Assembly (NCBI GenBank): GCA_024275415.1
Contig: JAJRZD010000125.1
Span: forward strand, 9,914 to 41,913
Length of the DNA stretch: 32,000 nucleotides
Reading direction: 5' to 3'
From: an archaeon
GTDB taxonomy: Archaea; Asgardarchaeota; Thorarchaeia; Thorarchaeales; Thorarchaeaceae
Of this stretch, positions 6,560 through 17,623 are shown piece after piece. The position numbers and the translations under genes are program-made. The stretch's first letter is position 1, and each line of letters begins with the position of its first letter. The notes beneath the pieces are model-generated. The model was not told where the DNA came from. It did not search any database and saw only the letters and a program-made list of their open reading frames with translations.

Positions 6560-7204
6560 TCATCTTATCGCTTTCAGAGCTCTACTTGCAACGAACCAGC
6601 TTATGTTTCCGAGCATCTCGTGTGGGAGATAGAATATCGAATTTCTGTCAAAGAGCATACGGGCACTTGCTGGGAACTCCTCGTCAGCCTCTTCAAAGAT
6701 TATGAGCACTTTTACCATGGGGAGAAAGGACAGCTCAAACCCTACATCTCCGTAGTCTACTCTCTTCGCACCTAACCGCTCGAATGCTGTATAGAGCTTC
6801 TCCCTATTCTCAATAAAAGCAGCAAGGAGTGCTTTGATGTCTTCTTCGTCAAATGAATACCTGCAAGCCCACGACCCTCTCAATGTGTTGAACTTCACCC
6901 ATTCGTTCCCGATGCCCTTGTCCTTTGCCTTGCTGTAATAGAAGAGATATGGAATCAACCGGCTGGGTGATGTTTCTGTATTTGTAAACGTATCGACAGT
7001 CCTTCCTGTTTCAAAATATAATCGGATACCAAGAATGTCCACATATTCGCTTCCCAGTCCAAAATGGTTCCTGATGGACTGGATGTCATCCTTGAAATTC
7101 TCCCAGCTCCACATTGCTGAACTCGTATCGAACTGCTCGATGTCGTGCTTATGCGCTATCTCTCGCGCGACACCCATCCAATACTCTAGAATATCGTCCG
7201 GCAT
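6560..7204 (-). CDS. DUF3786-like protein
   Basis: C-terminal FLPMVKVLIIFEEADEEFPASARMLFD..SIFYLPHE matches the DUF3786 signature as recalled. Confidence 0.75.
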   Translation of the reverse strand: MPDDILEYWMGVAREIAHKHDIEQFDTSSAMWSWENFKDDIQSIRNHFGLGSEYVDILGIRLYFETGRTVDTFTNTETSPSRLIPYLFYYSKAKDKGIGNEWVKFNTLRGSWACRYSFDEEDIKALLAAFIENREKLYTAFERLGAKRVDYGDVGFELSFLPMVKVLIIFEEADEEFPASARMLFDRNSIFYLPHEMLGNISWFVASRALKAIR

Positions 7205-7259
7205 AGAAAATCACCTACTCTGATACATCCGTTCCTATCAGTTTTTACAAACGCCATGC

Positions 7260-8060
7260 CTATTCCTTCTTGGCTTTCTCAGGTGCCGACCTGCAATCCT
7301 CAATTCCTGCAGCCTCGCATACAGCATAGCGTGCCTGATACCCTGCAACATGGAGGAGCGCATCACCGACTTCTCTATCCTTAGCCATTGACGCCGTGCA
7401 CGGGTATGCGTGATGGGCTTTAGAGATCACATCGAATAGGTCATCTGTATCTGCTATCGACCGTCCTCTGACCTTCTGGCTGACATACCATGTACATCCG
7501 CAAGGAGCAGAACGTTTTGGCCCGATCTCGGCAATGATGTCGCCTTTCATGTCCACATAATGGATTGGTCGCCCTAGTCTGTACTGCTCGATGAACTCGT
7601 CAATCAAAGCACCTTCTCCTGGTTCGAGAGTACAGAATGGCTTTGGAAACGCGGATTCAATACCTATCTCATCAAGGGTTTCCTTGACTTGCGCGCGCAA
7701 ACCTGGGGGTATCCATGTTGGATCCTCGATTGGCGCCAAGACGGCTCTCGCACCTGTTATCTTGATCATGTGATCGACCGAAGCAATGATGTCGTGGTGG
7801 ATTGCGACAATCAATAGGAGGTCGCACTTTTCTAGCCCGATTTCGTTGATGTATTGCTCAGGGTCTTCGATAATGGTGGGTGAGGGGGGGTCAATGGGAT
7901 AGATTCCCACAATATCGCCCACATAAGATCCATAGGTAGATCTGCATTCTGAGCAGCTAGGCTCACATGCCTGACAGAATGTCCGGAAGTTGATTAGGTT
8001 CCCTATAACTCGCTCAGCGAAGACATCGCCGTAAATGGTCGCTATTCGCATAGTCGCCAC
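7260..8060 (-). CDS. DUF166-like Cys-rich protein
   Basis: FPKPFCTL, SAPCGCT, HHAYPCTASM and GDALLHVAGY motifs, plus N-terminal CxxCxxxCxxC. Start is GTG 8060 or ATG 8051. Confidence 0.75.
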   Translation of the reverse strand: MATMRIATIYGDVFAERVIGNLINFRTFCQACEPSCSECRSTYGSYVGDIVGIYPIDPPSPTIIEDPEQYINEIGLEKCDLLLIVAIHHDIIASVDHMIKITGARAVLAPIEDPTWIPPGLRAQVKETLDEIGIESAFPKPFCTLEPGEGALIDEFIEQYRLGRPIHYVDMKGDIIAEIGPKRSAPCGCTWYVSQKVRGRSIADTDDLFDVISKAHHAYPCTASMAKDREVGDALLHVAGYQARYAVCEAAGIEDCRSAPEKAKKE

Positions 8061-8213
8061 CTAGAAGTGTAAAACGTATCTTAGCATGTTACATAAGGAT
8101 GTTGTTTGCGGCTCTTTCCATCTCCCTAACGGAAATATAATAACTTACAGATGCGCTGACGAATCTGGTGATGCAACATGGTTCTAGGTGACCTGCTCTT
8201 CCCGAATATCGAA

Positions 8214-8585
8214 ATGAAGCTCGTTATCACACATGATTTTATGAGCGATGTGGAAGCCGCACAGAACAGGATGTCCAATGAGTACCGGAATGCGACTGCC
8301 CTCGTTCGGTTGAGCAAAGGGGATATGCAGAAGCTGGGTCTGAAAGGTGAATCGAATGTGAGCATCCAATCAAAGGCTGGTTCAGTTGTTGTACATGCGG
8401 TAATGGACGAGAACGCTAAGGATGGCCTCGCCGTCGTCCCCTATGGTCCTTGGGCACTTGCACTTGTAGATGTCCCACCTGATGGATCTCCGCCACAGTA
8501 CCACGGGATTCCTGTGACCGTGAAACGGAGCGATGAACAGATTACTCCTCTTCTTGACCTTTTTCAGGACTCTTCATCGTCTTGA
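8214..8585 (+). CDS. fwdD: FwdD/FmdD-like molybdopterin-dinucleotide-binding-fold subunit (degenerate)
   Basis: DMQKLGL..NVSIQSKAGSVVV and PYGPWA pattern of FwdD, but the TGRT/QG motif is missing. Start 8214 preferred; 8178 is possible. Confidence 0.75.
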   Translation: MKLVITHDFMSDVEAAQNRMSNEYRNATALVRLSKGDMQKLGLKGESNVSIQSKAGSVVVHAVMDENAKDGLAVVPYGPWALALVDVPPDGSPPQYHGIPVTVKRSDEQITPLLDLFQDSSSS

Positions 8586-9903
8586 TTAGTTTGTCCACAC
8601 GACCTCGTTCGACCTGCAGATGGTGTCTTGGCTTCTTCTTGAGGAGGTTTCTCAGATCCTGAGCAGCCCGCATTGCTGCTTTCCTTTCACCATCTACAGA
8701 GTCCCATGCTTCATGTTGTTTGATTTGCTGGGATTCTTTCCTTGCGATATCGACCACGATATCTCTTTCGAACAACCCACTCGATGGTGGTGATATCCCT
8801 ACAATGGATTCGAAGGCCCGTTTTCTTGCCGCTTCCCATTCTTTTGCTCTTTCAATCTGGTCTACGTTGTACCCTTCTCGTTTGATGTCCAACACATCAT
8901 ATGGACATGCTATGACACATGCACCACAATACATGCAATGCTCCAAGATCTCTATCTTGTCTGCCGTTCCTGTGGGGTATATTGCCTTGATAGGGCAGAT
9001 GTTGAAGCAATTATGGCACCCTGTCGGATCACATTTATCAAGCTGCTTGATAATGACCTCGCCTGAGAATGGTTTTGTCACTTCAAGTGCTTCGTATGGG
9101 CATACCTCTGCACAGAGTCCACATTTTACGCAAGTTGTGTTATCATGCTTGAGTTCTCCTGTTATTTCAGGCTGTTTGATAGTACGCGGTCCCGATTCTA
9201 TGCATTCTACAGAAATCGCATCATCCGGACATATATCTGCACAGAGACCACAATAGTCACAGTGATCCTCATTGACTCTTATCCCGACAGCAGGGCGGAA
9301 ATCTGGAGGCTCCACGGCTTCTGACCAATAGATGGAGATTGCATCAGGACATAGAATCTCACACAGTCCGCAGAAGGAGCATTTCTTCTCATCGATGTTG
9401 ATGGTGCCCTTTGCGTATTCTTCACCTTGATACGTGACCAAAGATTCCTTCCGGTTCACTTTCACATCCACTTCAAGGGAGTCTGTCGGACAAACCTTCG
9501 TGCAAAGCACACACGGGGCACATTTCTCTTCATCAATGCGATGGATTCCATCAATCCGCTCATACTCGTTGATGGCTCCCTCTCCCTCATAACGTGCTTC
9601 GAAAGCTCTGAATATACATGCTGAGTCACAGAGGCCACAAAAGGTGCATAGGTCTGGATCCACATTCACAAGGGGTGCTCCCTCAATCAGTCCTGAAGCA
9701 GTTTCCTTTACGGGTCCCATGGTTATGGCATCCCATGGGCAGATCAAACAGACTCCACATCCCACACATTTTGCTATCTTGTGATCAAGCACTCTTGTCA
9801 GGATTGAGGTCTTCCAGATATAGATTACAGTGCCGTTTGTAACATCCATCGTGACGGTAGGCTTCTCTCCTACTGAAATCCCAGTTCGCTTTCCCTTATC
9901 CAC
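8542..9903 (-). CDS. fwdF: FwdF-like polyferredoxin with 8 [4Fe-4S] motifs
   Basis: Eight CxxCxxCxxxC-type motifs, including the FwdF-type CDPTGCHNCFNICP. Probable GTG start at 9903 overlaps the hdrA stop, with a GGTG RBS. The ORF is open to 9969. Confidence 0.85.
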   Translation of the reverse strand: MDKGKRTGISVGEKPTVTMDVTNGTVIYIWKTSILTRVLDHKIAKCVGCGVCLICPWDAITMGPVKETASGLIEGAPLVNVDPDLCTFCGLCDSACIFRAFEARYEGEGAINEYERIDGIHRIDEEKCAPCVLCTKVCPTDSLEVDVKVNRKESLVTYQGEEYAKGTINIDEKKCSFCGLCEILCPDAISIYWSEAVEPPDFRPAVGIRVNEDHCDYCGLCADICPDDAISVECIESGPRTIKQPEITGELKHDNTTCVKCGLCAEVCPYEALEVTKPFSGEVIIKQLDKCDPTGCHNCFNICPIKAIYPTGTADKIEILEHCMYCGACVIACPYDVLDIKREGYNVDQIERAKEWEAARKRAFESIVGISPPSSGLFERDIVVDIARKESQQIKQHEAWDSVDGERKAAMRAAQDLRNLLKKKPRHHLQVERGRVDKLIKTMKSPEKGQEEE

Positions 9904-12334
9904 GGCCGGCCACCTTCTTGGTTTTAGTACGATGTGAGGCTTTGGCATTCTTGGAGTTTTCACTTCCAAGCGGCCCTAGCTCCGTGATAGTATTCACAAA
10001 GTCCTCAATCTGTTCGGCGAAAAGATCTGCTTCTGCTGCTGACACACTGCCAAAGTATAGCCGCCGCCCATCTATCCCGATCGCCTCCAACACTTCACGG
10101 AGATTGTCTGTCCTGTCCTTAGCGTATCTAGCTCCTGTCCTGTAGTGACAATCTTGGACATGGCAACCCATCACCGCGACCCCATCCGCCCCTTCTGAGA
10201 ATGCAGTGAGGATGTTGTCGATATTAAGCCTTCCAGTACATGGCACTTGGATGTTGATTATATTTGGCGGATAGCGAATCCTTGAGGTCCCAGCTCTGTC
10301 TGCTGCGCCATAGGCACACCACCTGCACAGAAAACCAACAATCGCCGGCCTAAGTGGATTGTAATTCACAGCAGCCCGTGTTGCATTATCAAGTTGGTCG
10401 TTGTTCAGACATGGAAGATCCATCGCACTAGACGGACACGCACCTACGCATCCACCACACCCTCGACAGGCCGCAATATCGATAATAGGAACCTTTCCAT
10501 CATTGAACTTTATCGCATTTGGCGCACACACCTGTTCGCAGAGCCTACATCCGATACAAAGACTCTCATCACAAGATGGCGCACAGACTTCCGAAATGAT
10601 ATGCCCTGCAACGAAGAGGGTCTTTACCTTCGAAGCCGCCAGTCCTGCGTGTGCGACCGAATCGGCAATGTCTTTCGGCCCCTGAGCGACCCCTGCAAGG
10701 AATACCCCTTTAGAGTGTGTACTACTCGGGCCAAGTTTTGGATGTTGTTCCAAGAAGAAACCATTCTCATCCAGCGGTGTCTTGAGCATCTTTGACAGTT
10801 CCACGTTAGTAGGGCTCGCATCCATCCCGACCATCAATACCACGAGATCGACTTCCATCTCTACCAGTCTATGGAGCAGAGTATCCTCTCCTCTCACGAC
10901 AGTCTTCCCAGATATAGGGTCCTGAGCAATCTCACCTACCGCCCCGCGCACAAAGACTGCTTTGAACTCCTTTGCCGCACGCAGATAGAGCTCTTCTTGT
11001 CCTTTCCCAAAAGTGCGAATATCATTATAGAACACGTATGATTCAACATCTGGCAATTGCTGTTTGAGTTGGATGACCTCTTTCACTGCCGCAGCACAGC
11101 ATACCCTGCTACAATAAGGTCTATTGAATCTGATTGACCTGCTTCCAACACATAGCACAAAGACGACTCGTTTCGGCGGCTTTCCGTCTGAAGGTCTGAC
11201 CACTTTTCCACATGTGGGTCCTGCGGGATTGATCAATCGCTCGAACTCTAACGATGTTACTACATCAGGGTTCACCCCATATCCGAGCTCCTCCACGACC
11301 GTCGGGTCGAAAGTTTCGTATCCAGTAGCAGCCACAATCGCTCCGACATTGATGATTTCGGTTTCTTCCACCTCGTCATAACGGAGTGATTTTGGCTCAC
11401 AAACGCCTGCACATGACTGACACCCGATGCAATTATCGATATCGATGTAGGGTGCGATTGGCACAGTATCCATTGAGGGTCTGACCATCGCCTTTCTCTT
11501 GCCAATTCCACTGTTGTACTCATCAGGCACCTCCACTGGACATACCTCAATGCACCGGTTGCACCCCGTGCAAGTGTCTATATCCACATATCGTGCTTTT
11601 TGTTCGACCGTCACTTTGTATTGTCCTACGCTGCCTCGAATCCGCTTTACTTGAGCAAGAGTCATTATCCGTATCTTCTCGTGTCTTGACGCTCTTGCCA
11701 TCATCGGGCCAAGAATACAGATGCCGCAATCGAATGTCGGGAAAAGTTTATCCCACTTTGCCATATGCCCGCCAATGAAACCCTCTTTCTCTATGATTAC
11801 TACTTCTATCCCTGAATCAGCCAATTCTAACGCTGCAGTCAATCCTGCGACTCCTCCACCAATTATCAACGCGCGTTGTGAGATAGGTGTCTTATACAAT
11901 GACACAGGTTCAGAGTCACGGATCTTGGCTATGCTCGTATCAATGATTGCTCCTGCTTTCAGCGTTGCTGTTTCTGGGTCATCATAGTGTACCCAACTGC
12001 AATGTTCTCTAATGTTTGCCATCTGCAAATGCCCAGCGTCGAGACCTGCCTCTCTGACAGCATCAGAGAACAATTCCTTGTGGAGCAGAGGTGAGCATCC
12101 AGCAATGACCACTTTTTCAACATCGCTCTGTTTTATTTTCTTGATGAGATCATGCACTCCCTGTTCTGAACAGAGATGGTCATCCACCTCCACTAATGGG
12201 ATGCCCTCTTTCTCATATTTCTCCCTAAGCATTTCCACATCGATGACATCGGCAATGTTGGTTCCACAACGACAAAGGAACACACCTATGTTCTTTTTCT
12301 GCTTATCCTTGCTTTTTCGTTTCTTACGACTCAG
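9896..12334 (-). CDS. hdrA: HdrA-MvhD fusion (electron-bifurcating heterodisulfide reductase subunit A plus [2Fe-2S] MvhD domain)
   Basis: IGVFLCRCGTNI, AGCSP, ANIREHCSWVH, GGGVAG, DKLFPTFDC, two inserted ferredoxin motifs, SLEFERL, CVGSR..YCSRVCC...K and two C-terminal ferredoxin motifs. MvhD follows: FLCRWCAYGAAD, PCTGR, GCHVQDCHY. Start proposed at CTG 12334; the first GTG (12283) would cut off the conserved IG. Confidence 0.95.
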   Translation of the reverse strand: MSRKKRKSKDKQKKNIGVFLCRCGTNIADVIDVEMLREKYEKEGIPLVEVDDHLCSEQGVHDLIKKIKQSDVEKVVIAGCSPLLHKELFSDAVREAGLDAGHLQMANIREHCSWVHYDDPETATLKAGAIIDTSIAKIRDSEPVSLYKTPISQRALIIGGGVAGLTAALELADSGIEVVIIEKEGFIGGHMAKWDKLFPTFDCGICILGPMMARASRHEKIRIMTLAQVKRIRGSVGQYKVTVEQKARYVDIDTCTGCNRCIEVCPVEVPDEYNSGIGKRKAMVRPSMDTVPIAPYIDIDNCIGCQSCAGVCEPKSLRYDEVEETEIINVGAIVAATGYETFDPTVVEELGYGVNPDVVTSLEFERLINPAGPTCGKVVRPSDGKPPKRVVFVLCVGSRSIRFNRPYCSRVCCAAAVKEVIQLKQQLPDVESYVFYNDIRTFGKGQEELYLRAAKEFKAVFVRGAVGEIAQDPISGKTVVRGEDTLLHRLVEMEVDLVVLMVGMDASPTNVELSKMLKTPLDENGFFLEQHPKLGPSSTHSKGVFLAGVAQGPKDIADSVAHAGLAASKVKTLFVAGHIISEVCAPSCDESLCIGCRLCEQVCAPNAIKFNDGKVPIIDIAACRGCGGCVGACPSSAMDLPCLNNDQLDNATRAAVNYNPLRPAIVGFLCRWCAYGAADRAGTSRIRYPPNIINIQVPCTGRLNIDNILTAFSEGADGVAVMGCHVQDCHYRTGARYAKDRTDNLREVLEAIGIDGRRLYFGSVSAAEADLFAEQIEDFVNTITELGPLGSENSKNAKASHRTKTKKVAGRG

Positions 12335-12510: not shown

Positions 12511-12984
12511 ATGGAGACCTCAAAAGTGAAACTTAATCCCATGGAGATGTATAATCTCCTTCCCAAGACCAACTGTAGACAATGTGAGCCGAAGACTTGC
12601 ATGGCATTCGCCACCAAGCTTGCTCTTGGCGACGTGAACCCTGACGATTGCCCTCCGCTGCTTGAAGAAGGATTCGAGGCGAATCTACAAAAGATTCGTG
12701 ACTTGGTTGCCCCAATGCAGTCCGCTGCAGAAACAGGTATCAAGCTTGATGAGTCTAAATGCACAGGTTGTAGCAACTGTGTCGTAGCATGTCCGGTAGA
12801 TGTCGCTGCTGAACCTCCTACAAGTGAGGGAAAAGCCGCCCAAGTAGGAACCACAGTGTTCTGGGTGGAGAATGGGATTTCAAAGATTATCAACTTGGAG
12901 AAATGCAGACGCTTTCCCCCTAATCGTCTGAACTGCAGAGTTTGCGAGCAATACTGCTGCACTAATGCGATCGAAATATGGTAG
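12511..12984 (+). CDS. fwdG: FwdG-like ferredoxin fused to an N-terminal CdhE/AcsC-type [4Fe-4S] domain
   Basis: N-terminal LPKTNCRQCEPKTCMAFATKL...DCPPL (C-x2-C-x4-C-x16-C). C-terminal CTGCSNCVVACPV...VENG...C-x9-CRVCEQYCC is FwdG-like. Confidence 0.8.
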   Translation: METSKVKLNPMEMYNLLPKTNCRQCEPKTCMAFATKLALGDVNPDDCPPLLEEGFEANLQKIRDLVAPMQSAAETGIKLDESKCTGCSNCVVACPVDVAAEPPTSEGKAAQVGTTVFWVENGISKIINLEKCRRFPPNRLNCRVCEQYCCTNAIEIW

Positions 12985-14286
12985 GTGGCACTGATGGAAG
13001 AGATAGTTTGTACAGGATGTTATTTGCTCTGTGATGATTCCACAATTGAAGTCAAAGATGGCTCTTTGAGGTCTCTAGGACTCTGCAGGCTGGGACATGC
13101 ACATCTTGAGTCTGCTATTGAACATGCAACACCCAAGGCATTTGTCCGGACGGATGGCAAAAGTAATGAAATTGCGATTGACGATGCAATTCAACAAGCG
13201 GCAGACATCCTTCTTGAGGGTGGTTCACCTCTTCTTATCGGGTGGTCTCAGACCTCCGACGAAGTGATTAAAGAGGGCTTGGATATGGCTGCTAGAGTGA
13301 AGGGCTTCTTTGATTCCATGTCCAGTTTGGGAACATCACAAGCAATGCGCCATGAGATGCACTCATTGAAGCTAGAAGCCGACCTAGAATATGTTAGGAA
13401 CCACGGTGAGTTCATCATTTACTGGGGGACTGACCCTAGTGAGAGCCTGCACAGACACCCGAGCAGGTTCGCAGTCCTACCTCGTGGAGAGAAAATCCCC
13501 GAGGGTGTAGAGAGCAGGACTCTTGGCGTGGTCGATGTGCGACAAACAGAAACGATGAAAATAGCCAACCATCGTTTCATCATTCCCATAGGGAGCGATG
13601 CTGAGCTTCTTGAAACATTGGCAGCAGATATCACTGGTACCTCGAAGATTGATAGTGATGTTCTTGGGATACCAGCGACTGAGGTCATAGGCTTCTCCCA
13701 GCGGTTCCAGAAATCAGACTGTACTGCGATTTTCTATGGGAGTGGGATTTTGAATTCGGGGAAGCATGCAGATAATCTCGCTGGAATACAGAAGCTTGTT
13801 GAGGCAATCAGGTCTATAGGCAAGGAAGCGTTTGCCTTCCCGATGTTCACCGAACCCAACTCGATGGGTGTGATAAAGCATGTGGCCGATGTCACCTCAG
13901 TTCCATGCTCTATTGACTATTCCTCTGGAACTGGTGTTCATAATTCCGATGTGACAGCACTTCAGAAGCTGGTACAAGGCGAGCATTCAACATCGCTTGT
14001 TGTGGGGGATGATGTTCTGGCAGCACTCCCAAGACCCGCCGCAATGGCACTGGCAAAGACACGGATTATTTACATCGGTACCCCGAATGCTATCTGCGAT
14101 AGGTTTGCAGAGATTTCCATCCATACCCCTGATCAGATGCTCGAATCTGGTACAACGATGGAACGGATTGACATGGTCACAGTGACCTTGAAGGGACTTA
14201 CACCCCCTGTAGGTTCTAAGCCCACTATACTGGAGGTCATTACGAAGCTCAATGCAGCAATCCATGACCGAGGTGGCGTAAAGTGA
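12985..14286 (+). CDS. fwdB: FwdB/FmdB-like protein lacking active-site residues
   Basis: IVCTGCYLLCDD...LCRLG [4Fe-4S] motif, YWGTDP..HRHPSRF, VVDVRQTET and FYGSG are collinear with FwdB, but SVCHGP reads SLGTSQ and MRGHYN reads MFTEPN. Confidence 0.85.
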   Translation: MALMEEIVCTGCYLLCDDSTIEVKDGSLRSLGLCRLGHAHLESAIEHATPKAFVRTDGKSNEIAIDDAIQQAADILLEGGSPLLIGWSQTSDEVIKEGLDMAARVKGFFDSMSSLGTSQAMRHEMHSLKLEADLEYVRNHGEFIIYWGTDPSESLHRHPSRFAVLPRGEKIPEGVESRTLGVVDVRQTETMKIANHRFIIPIGSDAELLETLAADITGTSKIDSDVLGIPATEVIGFSQRFQKSDCTAIFYGSGILNSGKHADNLAGIQKLVEAIRSIGKEAFAFPMFTEPNSMGVIKHVADVTSVPCSIDYSSGTGVHNSDVTALQKLVQGEHSTSLVVGDDVLAALPRPAAMALAKTRIIYIGTPNAICDRFAEISIHTPDQMLESGTTMERIDMVTVTLKGLTPPVGSKPTILEVITKLNAAIHDRGGVK

Positions 14287-15089
14287 AGGTCGCAGTCGCA
14301 GGAAAGGGCGGAGTAGGAAAAACGACCGTCGCAGGAACCATTGCCCGCTTGCTTGGTCGTGATGGACTGAAGATACTTGCCGTGGATGCTGATCCCAGCT
14401 ACACGCTCTGGTCGGCGATAGGCATCCCTCAAGAGGTCGCAGACACAATTGTTCCCCTGACCGAGAACGAGGAGCTCGTGGAAGAACGGTTGCAGATCAA
14501 GGAGGTTGGACCTACCTCGACAGGCGTGTTCAAGCTGAACCCACGAGTCGATGACCTCGCCATAAAATTCGCGGTTCCTGGTCCTGACAATGTGCATCTC
14601 CTTGTGGCCGGTACTGTTGATACTGGAGGTTCCGGATGCATGTGTCCTTCAGCCACATTGCTGAAGTCGTTGATGCGTTATCTTGTTATTGGAACCGACG
14701 AAGCTTTTGTGATGGACATGGATGCTGGTGTTGAGAATCTTGGACGTGGCACGACCCGAGGGATGGACGCGTTGATTGTCGTTGTCGAGCCGGGACGGAG
14801 GTCTCTTGACATCATGGGGAAAATAAAGAAGCTTGCAGCAGACATTGAGGTCGGACTAATTCTTGCCGTCGGGAACAAGGTAGTCACTCCAGAAGACTCG
14901 GAGATGATCCGTGAGCGCGTTTCAGCCGAAGGGATCCCTCTCCTAGGGCTTGTCCCTCTAGATGAATCGATTCGAAAGGCTGACCGAAAGGGAATTGCAC
15001 CTATCGATTTGAACGACCAATCTCCCGCCATGCTGGAGATTAGGGACATAAAAGAAAGACTTGTCGAGAGAATCGCCCAAGTTTCATAA
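14283..15089 (+). CDS. cooC: CooC/AcsF-type nickel-insertion ATPase (CODH maturation)
   Basis: GKGGVGKT, DADP, GSGCMCP (CxC), and DMDAGVENLGRGT. GTGA overlap with fwdB. Confidence 0.9.
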   Translation: MKVAVAGKGGVGKTTVAGTIARLLGRDGLKILAVDADPSYTLWSAIGIPQEVADTIVPLTENEELVEERLQIKEVGPTSTGVFKLNPRVDDLAIKFAVPGPDNVHLLVAGTVDTGGSGCMCPSATLLKSLMRYLVIGTDEAFVMDMDAGVENLGRGTTRGMDALIVVVEPGRRSLDIMGKIKKLAADIEVGLILAVGNKVVTPEDSEMIRERVSAEGIPLLGLVPLDESIRKADRKGIAPIDLNDQSPAMLEIRDIKERLVERIAQVS

Positions 15090-15275
15090 TGAAACCCGCT
15101 CGTTTTCTTTTCAAAAACATATCTCTCCTCAGAAGGGTTTTCGTAATCGAACTTCTCTTTCCGCTTAATTAATGAAATCGAACATCATTTTTTACTTTCA
15201 GCCGTCCATTCATAACTTTCTTATGGTCGAATGTTTCAATTCAAAAGCACCACGCACACAGGAACTGAGCTAAAC

Positions 15276-17621
15276 ATGAAGAAAAAAGCGTACATCAAAG
15301 CCGATGAAGCCGAAACCAGTATGGGCGTCTTCAAAGGGCTTGAAGTCAGGATCGGACAGATCATTGACGACGAATGGGATGAACCCATGGGTCCGACACC
15401 GATGCCCGGTCCTACCACGTTACGTTCATGGGATCATAAGTTGTTGACGAAATACACCGCCTCATACATGCCTTATTGTCAGGTCTGTTGCCTCTGTACA
15501 ATGGGGAAATGTGACCTTTCCGGTGACAAAAGAGGGGCATGCGGTCTGGACATGAGAGGTCAGCAAGGAAGGATAGTCCTTGCCGCAGCCAATATCGGCT
15601 GTTCGGCCCACTTGGCCCATTCACGACATCTTATTGATTACCTGATCGAGGAATATGGGCCAAGGACGCGTTTGATCCAAGGTCCAGGTACTGAGATACA
15701 TGCACCTGTATCACGACTAGTGACAGGGATGCGTCCACGCACTCTGGAGGACGCAAGCATTATCCTTGACTATTGCGAAACCCAGCTTGCTCATACTCTC
15801 TCAGCGACATCCACCGGACAGGAAGGTAGTTGGATGGACTTTGAGAGCAAGGTATTCCATGTCGGGATGATTGACCAGCTGTCTATGGAGATTGCTGATT
15901 TAGCCCAAGTTTCAACATTGGGAATGCCACAGGCTGACCCTGATGCTCCCCTTGTGGAATCGGGAATTGGCATGATTGACACAAACAAAGCGGTCATCCT
16001 GACGATTGGTCATAATATTATACCTGCAGCTTCAATCACTGATTACGTCACTGAGAAAGGATTGTACGATCAGGTCGAAGTCGGCGGGATGTGTTGTACT
16101 GCATGGGACATGACCAGACGCGACCAAAAAGCTAAGGTCATCGGACCGATATCATGGCAGCTCCGATATGTCCGAAGCGGACAAGCTGATGTCGTAGTCG
16201 TTGACGAGCAATGCGTACGAACCGACATTGTTTCTGAAGCAAAGAAGGTGAGTACTCCAGTCATATCGACGAGTGACAAGGCTGTAATGGGATTGCCTGA
16301 CAGATCAGATGACCCAGTGGACTCTATTATTGAGGAGCTTGTATCTGGGAAAATCCCTGGTGCTTACATCTCAGACCATCATAAAGTTGGTATCATCGCC
16401 ACGAGAGTCGCGCTTGCTGTCAAACCGGCGCGCAGGAGAAAGCGGTTCTTCCCGAGTGCGAAGAAAATCCAGCAACTTGCTCAGGATTGCAAGAAATGTA
16501 TGGAGTGTGTACGTGCCTGTCCGAATGACCAGAACGTCCAAGAGGCTGTACTTGCTGCTCAGACCGGCAATATGGAACTCCTTCGCGAGGTCTACAATAA
16601 CTGCATCGGATGTGTCAGATGCGAGTCTGCCTGTCCAAATGACTATGCCCTCCACAGCTGGATGGCCGCCGTATCCCAGGATAGTTTCAAGAACGAAACG
16701 CATGTCGTCCGGACTGGGCGAGGTGCAGTTCAAGACACAGAAATCCGCCGAGTGGGACAACCCATTGTTTTTGGGGAGATTCCTGGCATCGTCGCCCATG
16801 TGGGGTGTGCCAATTATCCGGGCGGAGGAAAAGACGTACATGACATGGCTGAGGAGTTTGCTAAGCGCCGTTTCATCATTGTCACATCTGGATGTGCCGC
16901 GATTTCTGCGGGGCATGTAAAGGACGAGAACGGCCAATCTATCTACGAGCGTCGAAGCGGGGAATTCGATGCTGGCTGTGTCGTCAATATGGGCTCTTGC
17001 GTTGCCAACTCGCATATTGCCGGAGCCGCTATCAAGATTGCAGCTATCTTTGCAAAGAGGAACTTGCGTGGTAACTATGCCGAGATTGCTGATTACATCC
17101 ATAATCGTGTCGGCGCGGTAGGGATCTCTTGGGGTGCTATGTCCCAGAAAGCAGTTGCCATTGCAGCAGGATTCTGGCGACTTGGAGTCCCTGTGATTGT
17201 CGGTCCTCATGGCTCGAAATACAGGAGGATGTTCCTCGGACGAGCCGACCGTGACCGTGACTGGATAGTCTACGATGCACGTACAGGTGAACGAATGTAC
17301 ACTGCCCCTGGACCTGAACATCTGTTCTATGCCGCAGAAACCGTGGCGGAGGCAAACGTTCTTACAGCCAAGCTCTGCATAAGGCCCAATGACACAGCCA
17401 AAGGACGTTCAATCAAATTGAGCCATTACGTAGACTTGCATGAGCGATATATGGGCTTCTTCCCAGAGGATGTCTGGAAGTATATTAGGCGTAACAATGA
17501 CATACCCATCACGTTGAAAGACAAGATATTGGCTCAGATGAAAGAGAACAAATGGAAGGAACGTCCCATTCCGGATCCGACGATGCTCAAAGAGCAGATA
17601 TTCACTGGAGGTGAGAAGTAA
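15276..17621 (+). CDS. cdhA: ACDS complex alpha subunit (CO dehydrogenase)
   Basis: B/D-cluster CQVCCLCTMGKC..CG, and HLAHSRH. C-cluster ligands GHN, MCCT, DEQC, VGC, SGC and GSCV are all present. E/F clusters CKKCMECVRACP and CIGCVRCESACP. Start is 15276 or 15231. Confidence 0.97.
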   Translation: MKKKAYIKADEAETSMGVFKGLEVRIGQIIDDEWDEPMGPTPMPGPTTLRSWDHKLLTKYTASYMPYCQVCCLCTMGKCDLSGDKRGACGLDMRGQQGRIVLAAANIGCSAHLAHSRHLIDYLIEEYGPRTRLIQGPGTEIHAPVSRLVTGMRPRTLEDASIILDYCETQLAHTLSATSTGQEGSWMDFESKVFHVGMIDQLSMEIADLAQVSTLGMPQADPDAPLVESGIGMIDTNKAVILTIGHNIIPAASITDYVTEKGLYDQVEVGGMCCTAWDMTRRDQKAKVIGPISWQLRYVRSGQADVVVVDEQCVRTDIVSEAKKVSTPVISTSDKAVMGLPDRSDDPVDSIIEELVSGKIPGAYISDHHKVGIIATRVALAVKPARRRKRFFPSAKKIQQLAQDCKKCMECVRACPNDQNVQEAVLAAQTGNMELLREVYNNCIGCVRCESACPNDYALHSWMAAVSQDSFKNETHVVRTGRGAVQDTEIRRVGQPIVFGEIPGIVAHVGCANYPGGGKDVHDMAEEFAKRRFIIVTSGCAAISAGHVKDENGQSIYERRSGEFDAGCVVNMGSCVANSHIAGAAIKIAAIFAKRNLRGNYAEIADYIHNRVGAVGISWGAMSQKAVAIAAGFWRLGVPVIVGPHGSKYRRMFLGRADRDRDWIVYDARTGERMYTAPGPEHLFYAAETVAEANVLTAKLCIRPNDTAKGRSIKLSHYVDLHERYMGFFPEDVWKYIRRNNDIPITLKDKILAQMKENKWKERPIPDPTMLKEQIFTGGEK

Positions 17622-17623
17622 CA

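Follow-up and report, generated by a model that had tools for sequence, protein, structure and literature searches.

A family of FwdG-type ferredoxins with an additional CdhE-type iron-sulfur domain, encoded beside a degenerate FwdB paralogue in a thorarchaeon

In the solved complexes of formylmethanofuran dehydrogenase (Fwd), the core of the FwdG subunit sits on FwdB and forms the electron relay that joins the FwdF polyferredoxin to the cluster of FwdB, and recent methanogen structures reveal electron bifurcation by heterodisulfide reductase (Hdr) that is hard-wired to CO2 fixation by Fwd via polyferredoxin and FwdG. A second, 'tungsten-type' set of Fwd genes, of unknown role and named fwdG2B2D2 in its G-B-D order, has been described from Methanosarcina acetivorans (Rohlin and Gunsalus, 2010; PMC2838876). 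Here we describe a gene for a longer FwdG-type protein, referred to as FeS-FwdG or FwdG2, in a 32,000-nucleotide stretch of a Thorarchaeaceae genome (the window; assembly GCA_024275415.1, contig JAJRZD010000125.1, positions 9,914-41,913). Sequence comparison confirms, far beyond chance, that the predicted protein consists of a FwdG-type ferredoxin and an extra [4Fe-4S] domain of the type found in CdhE, the gamma subunit of the acetyl-CoA decarbonylase/synthase (ACDS) complex. We found no description of such a fusion in the literature on PF04060, on fwdG2 or on the Hdr and Fwd proteins of Thorarchaeota. The features of the protein, together with the CdhE of the same window, are as follows.

12511 to 12984, plus strand: gene for FeS-FwdG, 157 residues (open reading frame list; Pfam PF04060 and Fer4).
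12559 to 12657, plus strand: CdhE-type [4Fe-4S] domain, residues 17-49 (PF04060, E 3.1e-12, 46.4 bits against a cut-off of 23).
12676 to 12720, plus strand: linker helix, residues 56-70, homologous to the helix that follows the FeS domain in CdhE (AlphaFold2 helix; predicted local distance difference test score, pLDDT, of 86-94 for the block).
12736 to 12981, plus strand: FwdG-type ferredoxin core for two [4Fe-4S] clusters, residues 76-157 (phmmer to 9sfi_U and 5t5i_G; Foldseek to 5t5i_G).
12904 to 12960, plus strand: variant second cluster motif, C132-x9-C142-x2-C145-x3-C149(-C150) (translation; alignment of 74 members).
20762 to 22177, plus strand: CdhE, with the homologous N-terminal FeS domain at residues 14-46 (PF04060, E 7e-12).

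The N-terminal domain presents four cysteine ligands in the translation, spaced C22-x2-C25-x4-C30-x16-C47 exactly as in CdhE. The first-pass annotation of this stretch had pointed out this identity of spacing and had proposed a FwdG with a CdhE-like N-terminal Fe-S domain, and both observations hold: Pfam recovers the PF04060-type and Fer4 domains that it expected, the FwdG half finds FwdG structures, and BLASTP aligns residues 9-68 with residues 6-66 of the CdhE of the window at 46% identity over 61 residues (E 2e-13). Because this alignment reaches residue 68, the homology extends beyond the cluster domain into the helix that comes next. The signature Y-x-LLP-x-TNC-x2-CG-x2-TCMAFA, the cysteine spacing and the fold are shared with the N-domains of CdhE/AcsC proteins of known structure (2ycl, 4djd, 9fzy). 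An AlphaFold2 model of FeS-FwdG, built from 74 homologues (mean pLDDT 87; predicted template modelling score, pTM, 0.65), was used for a structure search, in which the N-domains of CFeSP (corrinoid iron-sulfur protein) large subunits fit the N-terminal half; in this predicted model 9fzy_F, 4c1n_G and 4djd_C superpose on the domain over 53-59 columns with root-mean-square deviations (rmsd) of 1.7-2.3 Å, the values for 9fzy_F being 59 columns and 1.7 Å.

The profile scores and the tree agree with this assignment. The isolated N-terminal 75 residues score 66 bits with the NCBIfam model of the CdhE gamma subunit and 33 bits with that of RsxB. The whole protein matches the CdhE model over residues 7-76 only (63 bits, below the cut-off of 306), has no PF03599 match, and scores 47 bits with TIGR01944 (cut-off 68.7) and 51 bits with RsxB (cut-off 281). 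A tree, of the kind that the earlier annotation had suggested, was built from the PF04060 domains of six genomes and of the related loci; in it the FwdG2 domains, the CdhE domains and two C-terminal copies from Methanothrix form one clade (support 100/99), with RnfB-like and other PF04060 domains outside it. With 55 columns, the tree gives no resolution inside this clade (approximately unbiased test, p 0.34 for monophyly of the FwdG2 domains). The N-domain is thus supported as being of CdhE type, not RnfB type, and is a putative copy of the N-terminus of CdhE. Since it is attached to a ferredoxin and not to the corrinoid-binding triosephosphate isomerase (TIM) barrel, FeS-FwdG is not a CFeSP. 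With RnfB/RsxB it shares the domain order PF04060 to Fer4 at similar spacing, the NCBIfam RsxB model aligning with residues 14-98; however its FeS domain is of CdhE type, its ferredoxin half is FwdG-like and all Rnf scores lie below cut-off, and the domain begins at residue 17 after a polar N-terminus in which no membrane helix is apparent from the sequence as read, no transmembrane predictor having been run.

The PF04060 domain is a mobile module, also found fused to MobB and to a helix-turn-helix (HTH) protein. In Borrarchaeum it is the MobB fusion that occurs (L106:1342-2121), and in Methanothrix a CdhE-type PF04060 domain forms the C-terminus of an HTH protein (L108:844-1659), which could be a redox-sensing regulator, and of a second protein with no other Pfam match (L116:874-1662). 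These two Methanothrix proteins were also considered as DUF3786 fusions, a possibility that we rejected as Pfam gives HTH in the one and nothing in the other.

The C-terminal 82 residues of FeS-FwdG resemble the FwdG of the tungsten Fwd complexes (5t5i_G, 9sfi_U) in having the two-cluster fold and the FwdG-specific insert between the two cysteine motifs, which lies within the match to the solved chains. The E values are 6.4e-9 for 9sfi_U from M. maripaludis, which belongs to an Hdr-Vhu-Fwd assembly (PMC13518236), and 1.3e-7 for 5t5i_G from M. wolfeii; the latter is also the best Foldseek match of the model (TM-score 0.86, rmsd 1.5 Å). As with that FwdG, the gene stands upstream of a FwdB homologue. 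FeS-FwdG is, however, twice as long, owing to the N-terminal third-cluster domain and the linker helix; its partner is a paralogue of FwdB, here termed FwdB2, and neither FwdA nor FwdC is encoded in the locus.

A further difference lies in the second cluster motif. The first motif is canonical (C84xxC87xxC90xxxC94P), and the second reads C-x9-C in place of C-x2-C, so that FeS-FwdG does not carry two canonical CxxCxxCxxxCP motifs. C132 aligns with the first cysteine of the canonical second motif, which places the 7-residue insertion directly after it, and a conserved CRR(F/Y) begins at C132 within the x9 stretch. We aligned 19 and 74 members of the family; in the 74, all 12 cluster cysteines and R134 are invariant and R133 is present in at least 90%, and because of this invariance the x9 form is a hallmark of the family. 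C150, the second cysteine of the 'CC', is restricted to Thorarchaeota, other lineages having CP, CY, CA, CN or CF. The altered motif C-x9-CxxCxxxCC given in the first-pass annotation is therefore correct in form; the x9 spacing is family-wide, and it is only the extra cysteine that is peculiar to Thorarchaeota. As the motif still offers four cysteines, cluster binding at this site is plausible.

A search with FeS-FwdG for homologues of near-equal length gave 157 sequences, those from Thorarchaeota being 76-87% identical over the full length. Most orthologues have 152 residues and begin at the position of V6 in the protein of the window, where a GTG codon at 12526, 8 nucleotides past a GGAG, may be the true start and would give the 152-residue form. 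The homologues span Thor-, Hermod-, Hod-, Hel- and Promethearchaeota as well as Methanosalsum, Methanolobus, Methanohalobium, Methanoperedens and Methermicoccaceae, and carry, where a name is given, only '(Fe-S)-binding protein' or '4Fe-4S ferredoxin'. When the scan was limited to one genome for each species, at least 531 relatives came up, and the best 80 of these loci, on which all locus counts below are based, add Borr-, Sif- and Sigynarchaeota, Bathyarchaeota/Culexarchaeota, Archaeoglobi, Methanotrichaceae, ANME-2 (anaerobic methanotrophic archaea), and Altiarchaeota. The fusion is, on these data, a widespread single-copy archaeal family and is probably ancestral to that family, not a local oddity. 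A search for longer fused forms returned CdhE proteins only, matched via the N-domain, which is weak evidence against larger fusions. Homologues of 127 or 128 residues without PF04060 were considered as unfused forms and rejected; judged by their lengths, they are best read as start miscalls at the Met of CMAFA.

In Methanosarcinales and Archaeoglobi, FwdD (PF01568) comes after FwdB, which gives the G-B-D order of M. acetivorans. FeS-FwdG is 42-48% identical over its full length to Methanosarcinales members, including that of a Methanosarcina metagenome-assembled genome (MAG) with the G-B-D order (L078), the FwdB2 proteins belong to the same clade, and the association with hdrA2-polyferredoxin genes seen in Methanosarcinaceae is common to both. 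Full-length orthology, a FwdB2-clade gene next to it and a FwdD2 in the cluster are thus all found, and the fused family is most likely the 'fwdG2' of Methanosarcina, a name that is taken from the published gene designation. The locus of the window differs in that FwdD is displaced beyond the hdrA-polyferredoxin genes, the Cys ligand of FwdB2 is also lost, and the genes lead into cooC-cdhABCDE. The neighbouring genes are listed below.

8178 to 8585, plus strand: FwdD-like gene (PF01568, E 2.7e-10; NCBIfam FwdD 60 bits, below cut-off), kept in the cluster in 45 loci.
8542 to 9969, minus strand: FwdF-like polyferredoxin (multiple Fer4; NCBIfam FwdF 225 bits over positions 7-331 of 336).
9896 to 12283, minus strand: HdrA2-type HdrA-MvhD fusion (FlpD/MvhD domain and HdrA features; NCBIfam HdrA2 899.6 bits over the full length, cut-off 1100).
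12985 to 14286, plus strand: FwdB2-type paralogue with degenerate active site (TIGR03129 249 bits, cut-off 327.8; alignment to 5t5i_B).
14283 to 15089, plus strand: CooC-type ATPase (CbiA/NifH-type P-loop), its start overlapping the FwdB2 stop.
15231 to 22177, plus strand: cdhABCDE, the ACDS genes (NCBIfam cdhA, cdhB, cdhC, cdhD and gamma all above cut-off).

A FwdB homologue lies directly 3' of FeS-FwdG in 71 of the 80 loci, and in the window the FeS-FwdG stop codon directly abuts the FwdB2 start. Alignment to 5t5i_B identifies the canonical FwdB active site as ...SVCHG... and PMRGHYN; in the FwdB2 of the window G116-T117 replace the Cys-His pair and F288 replaces the Arg, with the N-terminal CxxCxxxC...C kept, and the earlier claim that the neighbouring FwdB lacks an active site is borne out. 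The FwdB proteins beside FeS-FwdG group in a clade of their own, separate from the canonical FwdB encoded in those genomes (support 99 in the Shimodaira-Hasegawa-like approximate likelihood ratio test, SH-aLRT). Of the 71 adjoining FwdB proteins 70 are FwdB2, and the catalytic Arg is lost in all 70. Most FwdB2 read C-Q or C-L at the Cys-His position, those of Borr-/Sifarchaeota and two other Asgard families C-H, and the Cys too is lost in Thor, Hermod, Hecatellales, Sigyn and Methanocrinis; scores with TIGR03129 reach 457 bits in Methanolobus, 427 in Methanothrix, 362 in Archaeoglobus and 550 in Borrarchaeum. In Methanocrinis and a relative (L057, L059) a Ser stands in for the metal-ligand Cys (SSYSQG), unlike the Gly or Glu of Thor and Hermod. 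The sole exception to the partnership with FwdB2 is an Altiarchaeota locus (L074) in which FeS-FwdG is accompanied by FwdA, a canonical FwdB (C-H-R) and FwdD, directly 3' of cdhABCDE. The first-pass annotation had held that finding the fusion equally often beside fully catalytic fwdABCD without an ACDS link would speak against its proposal; the distribution goes part of the way in that direction, in that a catalytic set occurs, but 70 of 71 genes lie beside an Arg-less FwdB2 and the remaining one follows cdhABCDE directly.

The wider neighbourhood is conserved as well. The HdrA-MvhD gene is divergent from FeS-FwdG, and the five genes for the FwdD-like protein, polyferredoxin, HdrA-MvhD, FeS-FwdG and FwdB2 recur together in Thor, Hermod, Loki, Hecatellales, Culexarchaeota and Borr/Sif, the first three of them recurring in Asgard, Bathyarchaeota and Methanosarcinaceae. 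In Methanosarcinaceae the hdrA2-polyferredoxin genes, which in M. acetivorans are a known operon up-regulated on acetate (PMC5296606), lie 1-6 kb from fwdG2B2D2. In Borrarchaeum a D2 gene and a FwdA paralogue lie across from FeS-FwdG on the far side of the polyferredoxin-hdrA pair, and further Asgard families show the orders D2-A2-G2-B2 or G2-B2-A2. The FwdA-like paralogue scores about 300 bits in most such genomes, below cut-off, and about 579 bits in Borr, which points to a second Fwd-like isoenzyme that is fairly complete and of which the Thorarchaeota version would be a degenerate descendant; examples within the FeS-FwdG/FwdB2 cluster are L017:4040-6348 (Borrarchaeum), L124:8380-12104 and L123:8737-12475. 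In the window, domain scans recovered FwdB2 and the FwdD-like protein and no FwdA or FwdC, so that the full FwdA, B, C and D set of a formylmethanofuran-forming enzyme is not encoded there. The genome has a canonical fwdDBAC operon on another contig (C113, L088:6629-10850) with no FwdG or FwdF gene beside it, and no other FwdG-type gene was found in this 92.9%-complete genome. Taken together, these FwdA, B2, D2, Hdr and polyferredoxin neighbourhoods mark FeS-FwdG as the putative G subunit of a Fwd-like system paralogous to canonical Fwd; this system appears fairly complete in some lineages and reduced to its iron-sulfur parts in Thorarchaeota.

Two details of gene structure concern this neighbourhood. 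The FwdD-like and polyferredoxin genes converge with a 44-nucleotide overlap (8542-8585). The longest polyferredoxin reading frame overlaps the 3' end of hdrA-mvhD by 74 nucleotides (9896-9969), for which reason its true start may lie further downstream.

FeS-FwdG, FwdB2, cooC and cdhABCDE form one co-directional string in the window. FwdB2 and CooC also adjoin each other in three loci of Hermod (L009-L011), while at locus L014 it is FeS-FwdG that has CooC upstream of it; cdh genes occur within 10 kb of FeS-FwdG in six lineages, Thor, Hermod, Loki, Culexarchaeota, some Archaeoglobi and Altiarchaeota, and in four Methanotrichaceae loci the 3' end of CdhE lies 9 kb upstream. Co-distribution was assessed in 201 Asgard genomes, each at least 70% complete, of which 95 contain FeS-FwdG (once each), 96 CdhC and 125 FwdA. 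FwdG2 and CdhC are found together in 85 of these genomes, singly in 10 and 11 respectively, and in 95 neither is present. Every FwdG2-positive genome has FwdA; within the 125 FwdA-positive genomes, 85 have both FwdG2 and CdhC, 10 FwdG2 alone, 8 CdhC alone and 22 neither, these last including eleven of the window's own family. The presence of FwdG2 in Asgard archaea thus tracks CdhC rather than FwdA. In three closed or near-closed genomes (G043, G017, G028) the FwdG2 and cdh loci are 150-830 kb apart, so the co-occurrence is not a matter of linkage alone. The resulting link between FeS-FwdG and ACDS is suggestive, although unproven.

The explanation we favour, and consider somewhat better than an even bet, is that FeS-FwdG is a three-cluster, G-type relay subunit of a Hdr-linked, Fwd-like scaffold. 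The scaffold, or 'Fwd2' module, would comprise G2-B2-D2, with A2 in some lineages, in association with Hdr. FeS-FwdG would bind three [4Fe-4S] clusters, two in the FwdG-type core and the third in the N-domain. As in the solved Fwd complexes, the core would rest on FwdB2 with a connection to the polyferredoxin, and the third cluster, on its helical tether, would extend the wire sideways as an extra entry or exit port, from which the N-domain, if mobile, could reach another partner. In the thorarchaeote the absence of FwdA2, the loss of the Cys, His and Arg of FwdB2, the retention of the FeS-FwdG ligands and the string with cooC-cdhABCDE make a pure electron conduit its most likely present role. 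Such a conduit would join HdrA-MvhD and the polyferredoxin to a partner for which carbon monoxide dehydrogenase/acetyl-CoA synthase (CODH/ACS) is the best candidate, and electron delivery from FeS-FwdG to ACDS is plausible. Since the parts of the wire are kept, catalysis and FwdA2 are lost, cooC-cdh is joined on and CdhC is tracked, a conduit from Hdr to ACDS is the most attractive partner hypothesis, albeit a tentative one that we hold with clearly less confidence than the relay role within which it stands. Rather unlikely, in our estimate, is the further idea that the CdhE-type domain is a shared 'plug' by which CdhE and FwdG2 dock at a common low-potential site, either CODH or the HdrA-MvhD/polyferredoxin wire, and that in Thorarchaeota and related lineages a dead scaffold G2-B2*-D2*-F hard-wires HdrA-MvhD bifurcation to CODH/ACS; electrons for CO2 reduction would then be supplied without free ferredoxin.

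Several observations weigh against this explanation. Five loci of ANME-2 type carry FeS-FwdG alone among unrelated genes; the other four of the nine loci that have no FwdB homologue directly 3' of it end at a contig edge. No cdh gene lies within 10 kb of FeS-FwdG in the Methanosarcinaceae loci. The fusion is tied neither to a dead FwdB nor to a place beside the ACDS genes: it is family-wide, and Asgard families with a Cys-His FwdB2 beside a FwdA paralogue carry it as well. Being family-wide, it did not arise as an adaptation to either. The loss of the Cys is no proof of a cofactor-free FwdB2, the Mo of arsenite oxidase having no protein ligand. Co-occurrence with CdhC may reflect a shared lifestyle, and in Thor and Hermod it may reflect physical linkage, where one deletion would remove both loci; the genomes are moreover related, hence not independent, and many are incomplete. 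Finally, expression of fwd2 in M. acetivorans has been reported to be low (PMC2838876).

Four other explanations deserve consideration. FeS-FwdG could feed a FwdB2/D2 enzyme that is still active but has changed its chemistry and acts on an unknown substrate; the N-domain would then be a ferredoxin-docking port with no special relation to ACDS. The Cys ligand kept in most FwdB2 (as CQ, CL or CH), the conservation of FwdD2 and the retention of a FwdA paralogue in several Asgard families favour such an enzyme, and the PF04060 domains of CFeSP and RnfB do transfer electrons with external partners. We nevertheless find it unlikely, as the Cys, His and Arg are all replaced in the window, scores with the FwdB and FwdD models fall far short of the cut-offs, the loss of the Arg extends to every FwdB2 and the tracking of CdhC over FwdA is left unexplained. 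If the module instead worked with CooC to mature or reductively activate CODH/ACS, and not to supply electrons for catalysis, with its CdhE-like domain mimicking the port of CdhE, this would account for the overlap of the FwdB2 stop with the cooC start and for the FwdB2-CooC or CooC-FwdG order in Hermod and Culexarchaeota; the cluster domain of CFeSP likewise serves reductive activation of the corrinoid rather than catalysis. CooC adjacency is, however, absent in Methanosarcinales, Borrarchaeum and most other lineages, and the conserved Hdr and polyferredoxin partners fit bulk electron flow better, which makes such a role improbable.

The lack of a FwdG gene beside fwdDBAC on contig C113, or elsewhere in the genome, raises the question of whether FeS-FwdG is simply the missing G subunit of the canonical Fwd, and the Altiarchaeota FeS-FwdG does sit with the only Fwd of its genome, a canonical one. 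Yet the eleven genomes of the thorarchaeal family that have FwdA and neither FeS-FwdG nor CdhC imply that canonical Fwd can do without FeS-FwdG, and in 70 of 71 loci the gene abuts FwdB2 and not a canonical FwdB; with the Mo-type fmd operons of Methanosarcina also having no G gene (PMC2838876), we regard this assignment as very unlikely. Least credible of all is the view that FeS-FwdG no longer has a function and is decaying after the loss of an Fwd2 enzyme: although the neighbouring FwdB2 and FwdD-like genes are degenerate, the full-length identity among Thorarchaeota orthologues, the invariance of 12 out of 12 cysteines, the single copies in 95 of 201 Asgard genomes and the absence of internal stops are hardly what decay would leave.

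The FeS-FwdG family thus would add a third cluster, derived from the ACDS gamma subunit, to FwdG. In the literature found, the module is characterized only by the naming of genes and by transcript measurements, yet it is present in Methanosarcinales that can be grown and engineered. In Asgard archaea the catalytic site of the module is lost, while FeS-FwdG keeps all its cluster ligands, stands at the head of the ACDS operon in certain lineages and occurs or is missing along with ACDS. A direct wire to CODH/ACS, if real, would revise the view of how low-potential electrons reach the Wood-Ljungdahl pathway in the closest archaeal relatives of eukaryotes; should the wire prove illusory, a testable three-cluster variant of FwdG would still be at hand.

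Among the minor observations, the five solitary FeS-FwdG genes of ANME-2-type/Methanosarcinales MAGs (L036, L044, L053, L056, L064; at about 10001-10450) have a TrkA-N/DHH-DHHA1 gene upstream in four cases. Next to the cluster of the window stands a pair of genes for DUF3786 and DUF166 proteins (6560-8060, minus strand); DUF3786 recurs in four other Thorarchaeota loci, with DUF166 in two of these, and DUF166 occurs alone in a Lokiarchaeal locus (L073). The docking or swinging electron outlet towards ACDS or DUF3786 that the first-pass annotation had envisaged stays conjectural, and for DUF3786 we found no link beyond gene proximity in Thorarchaeota. Just past the ACDS cluster, an Asgard-type eukaryotic signature protein of 164 residues is encoded at 23343-23837 (minus strand); its longin match is weak and falls just short of the cut-off (PF19036 Fuz_longin_1, E 2.9e-5). 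Downstream of the ACDS genes, 24059-25948 (plus strand) encodes a 629-residue protein in which an acetyl-CoA hydrolase/CoA-transferase is fused to a GNAT acetyltransferase domain at its C-terminus.

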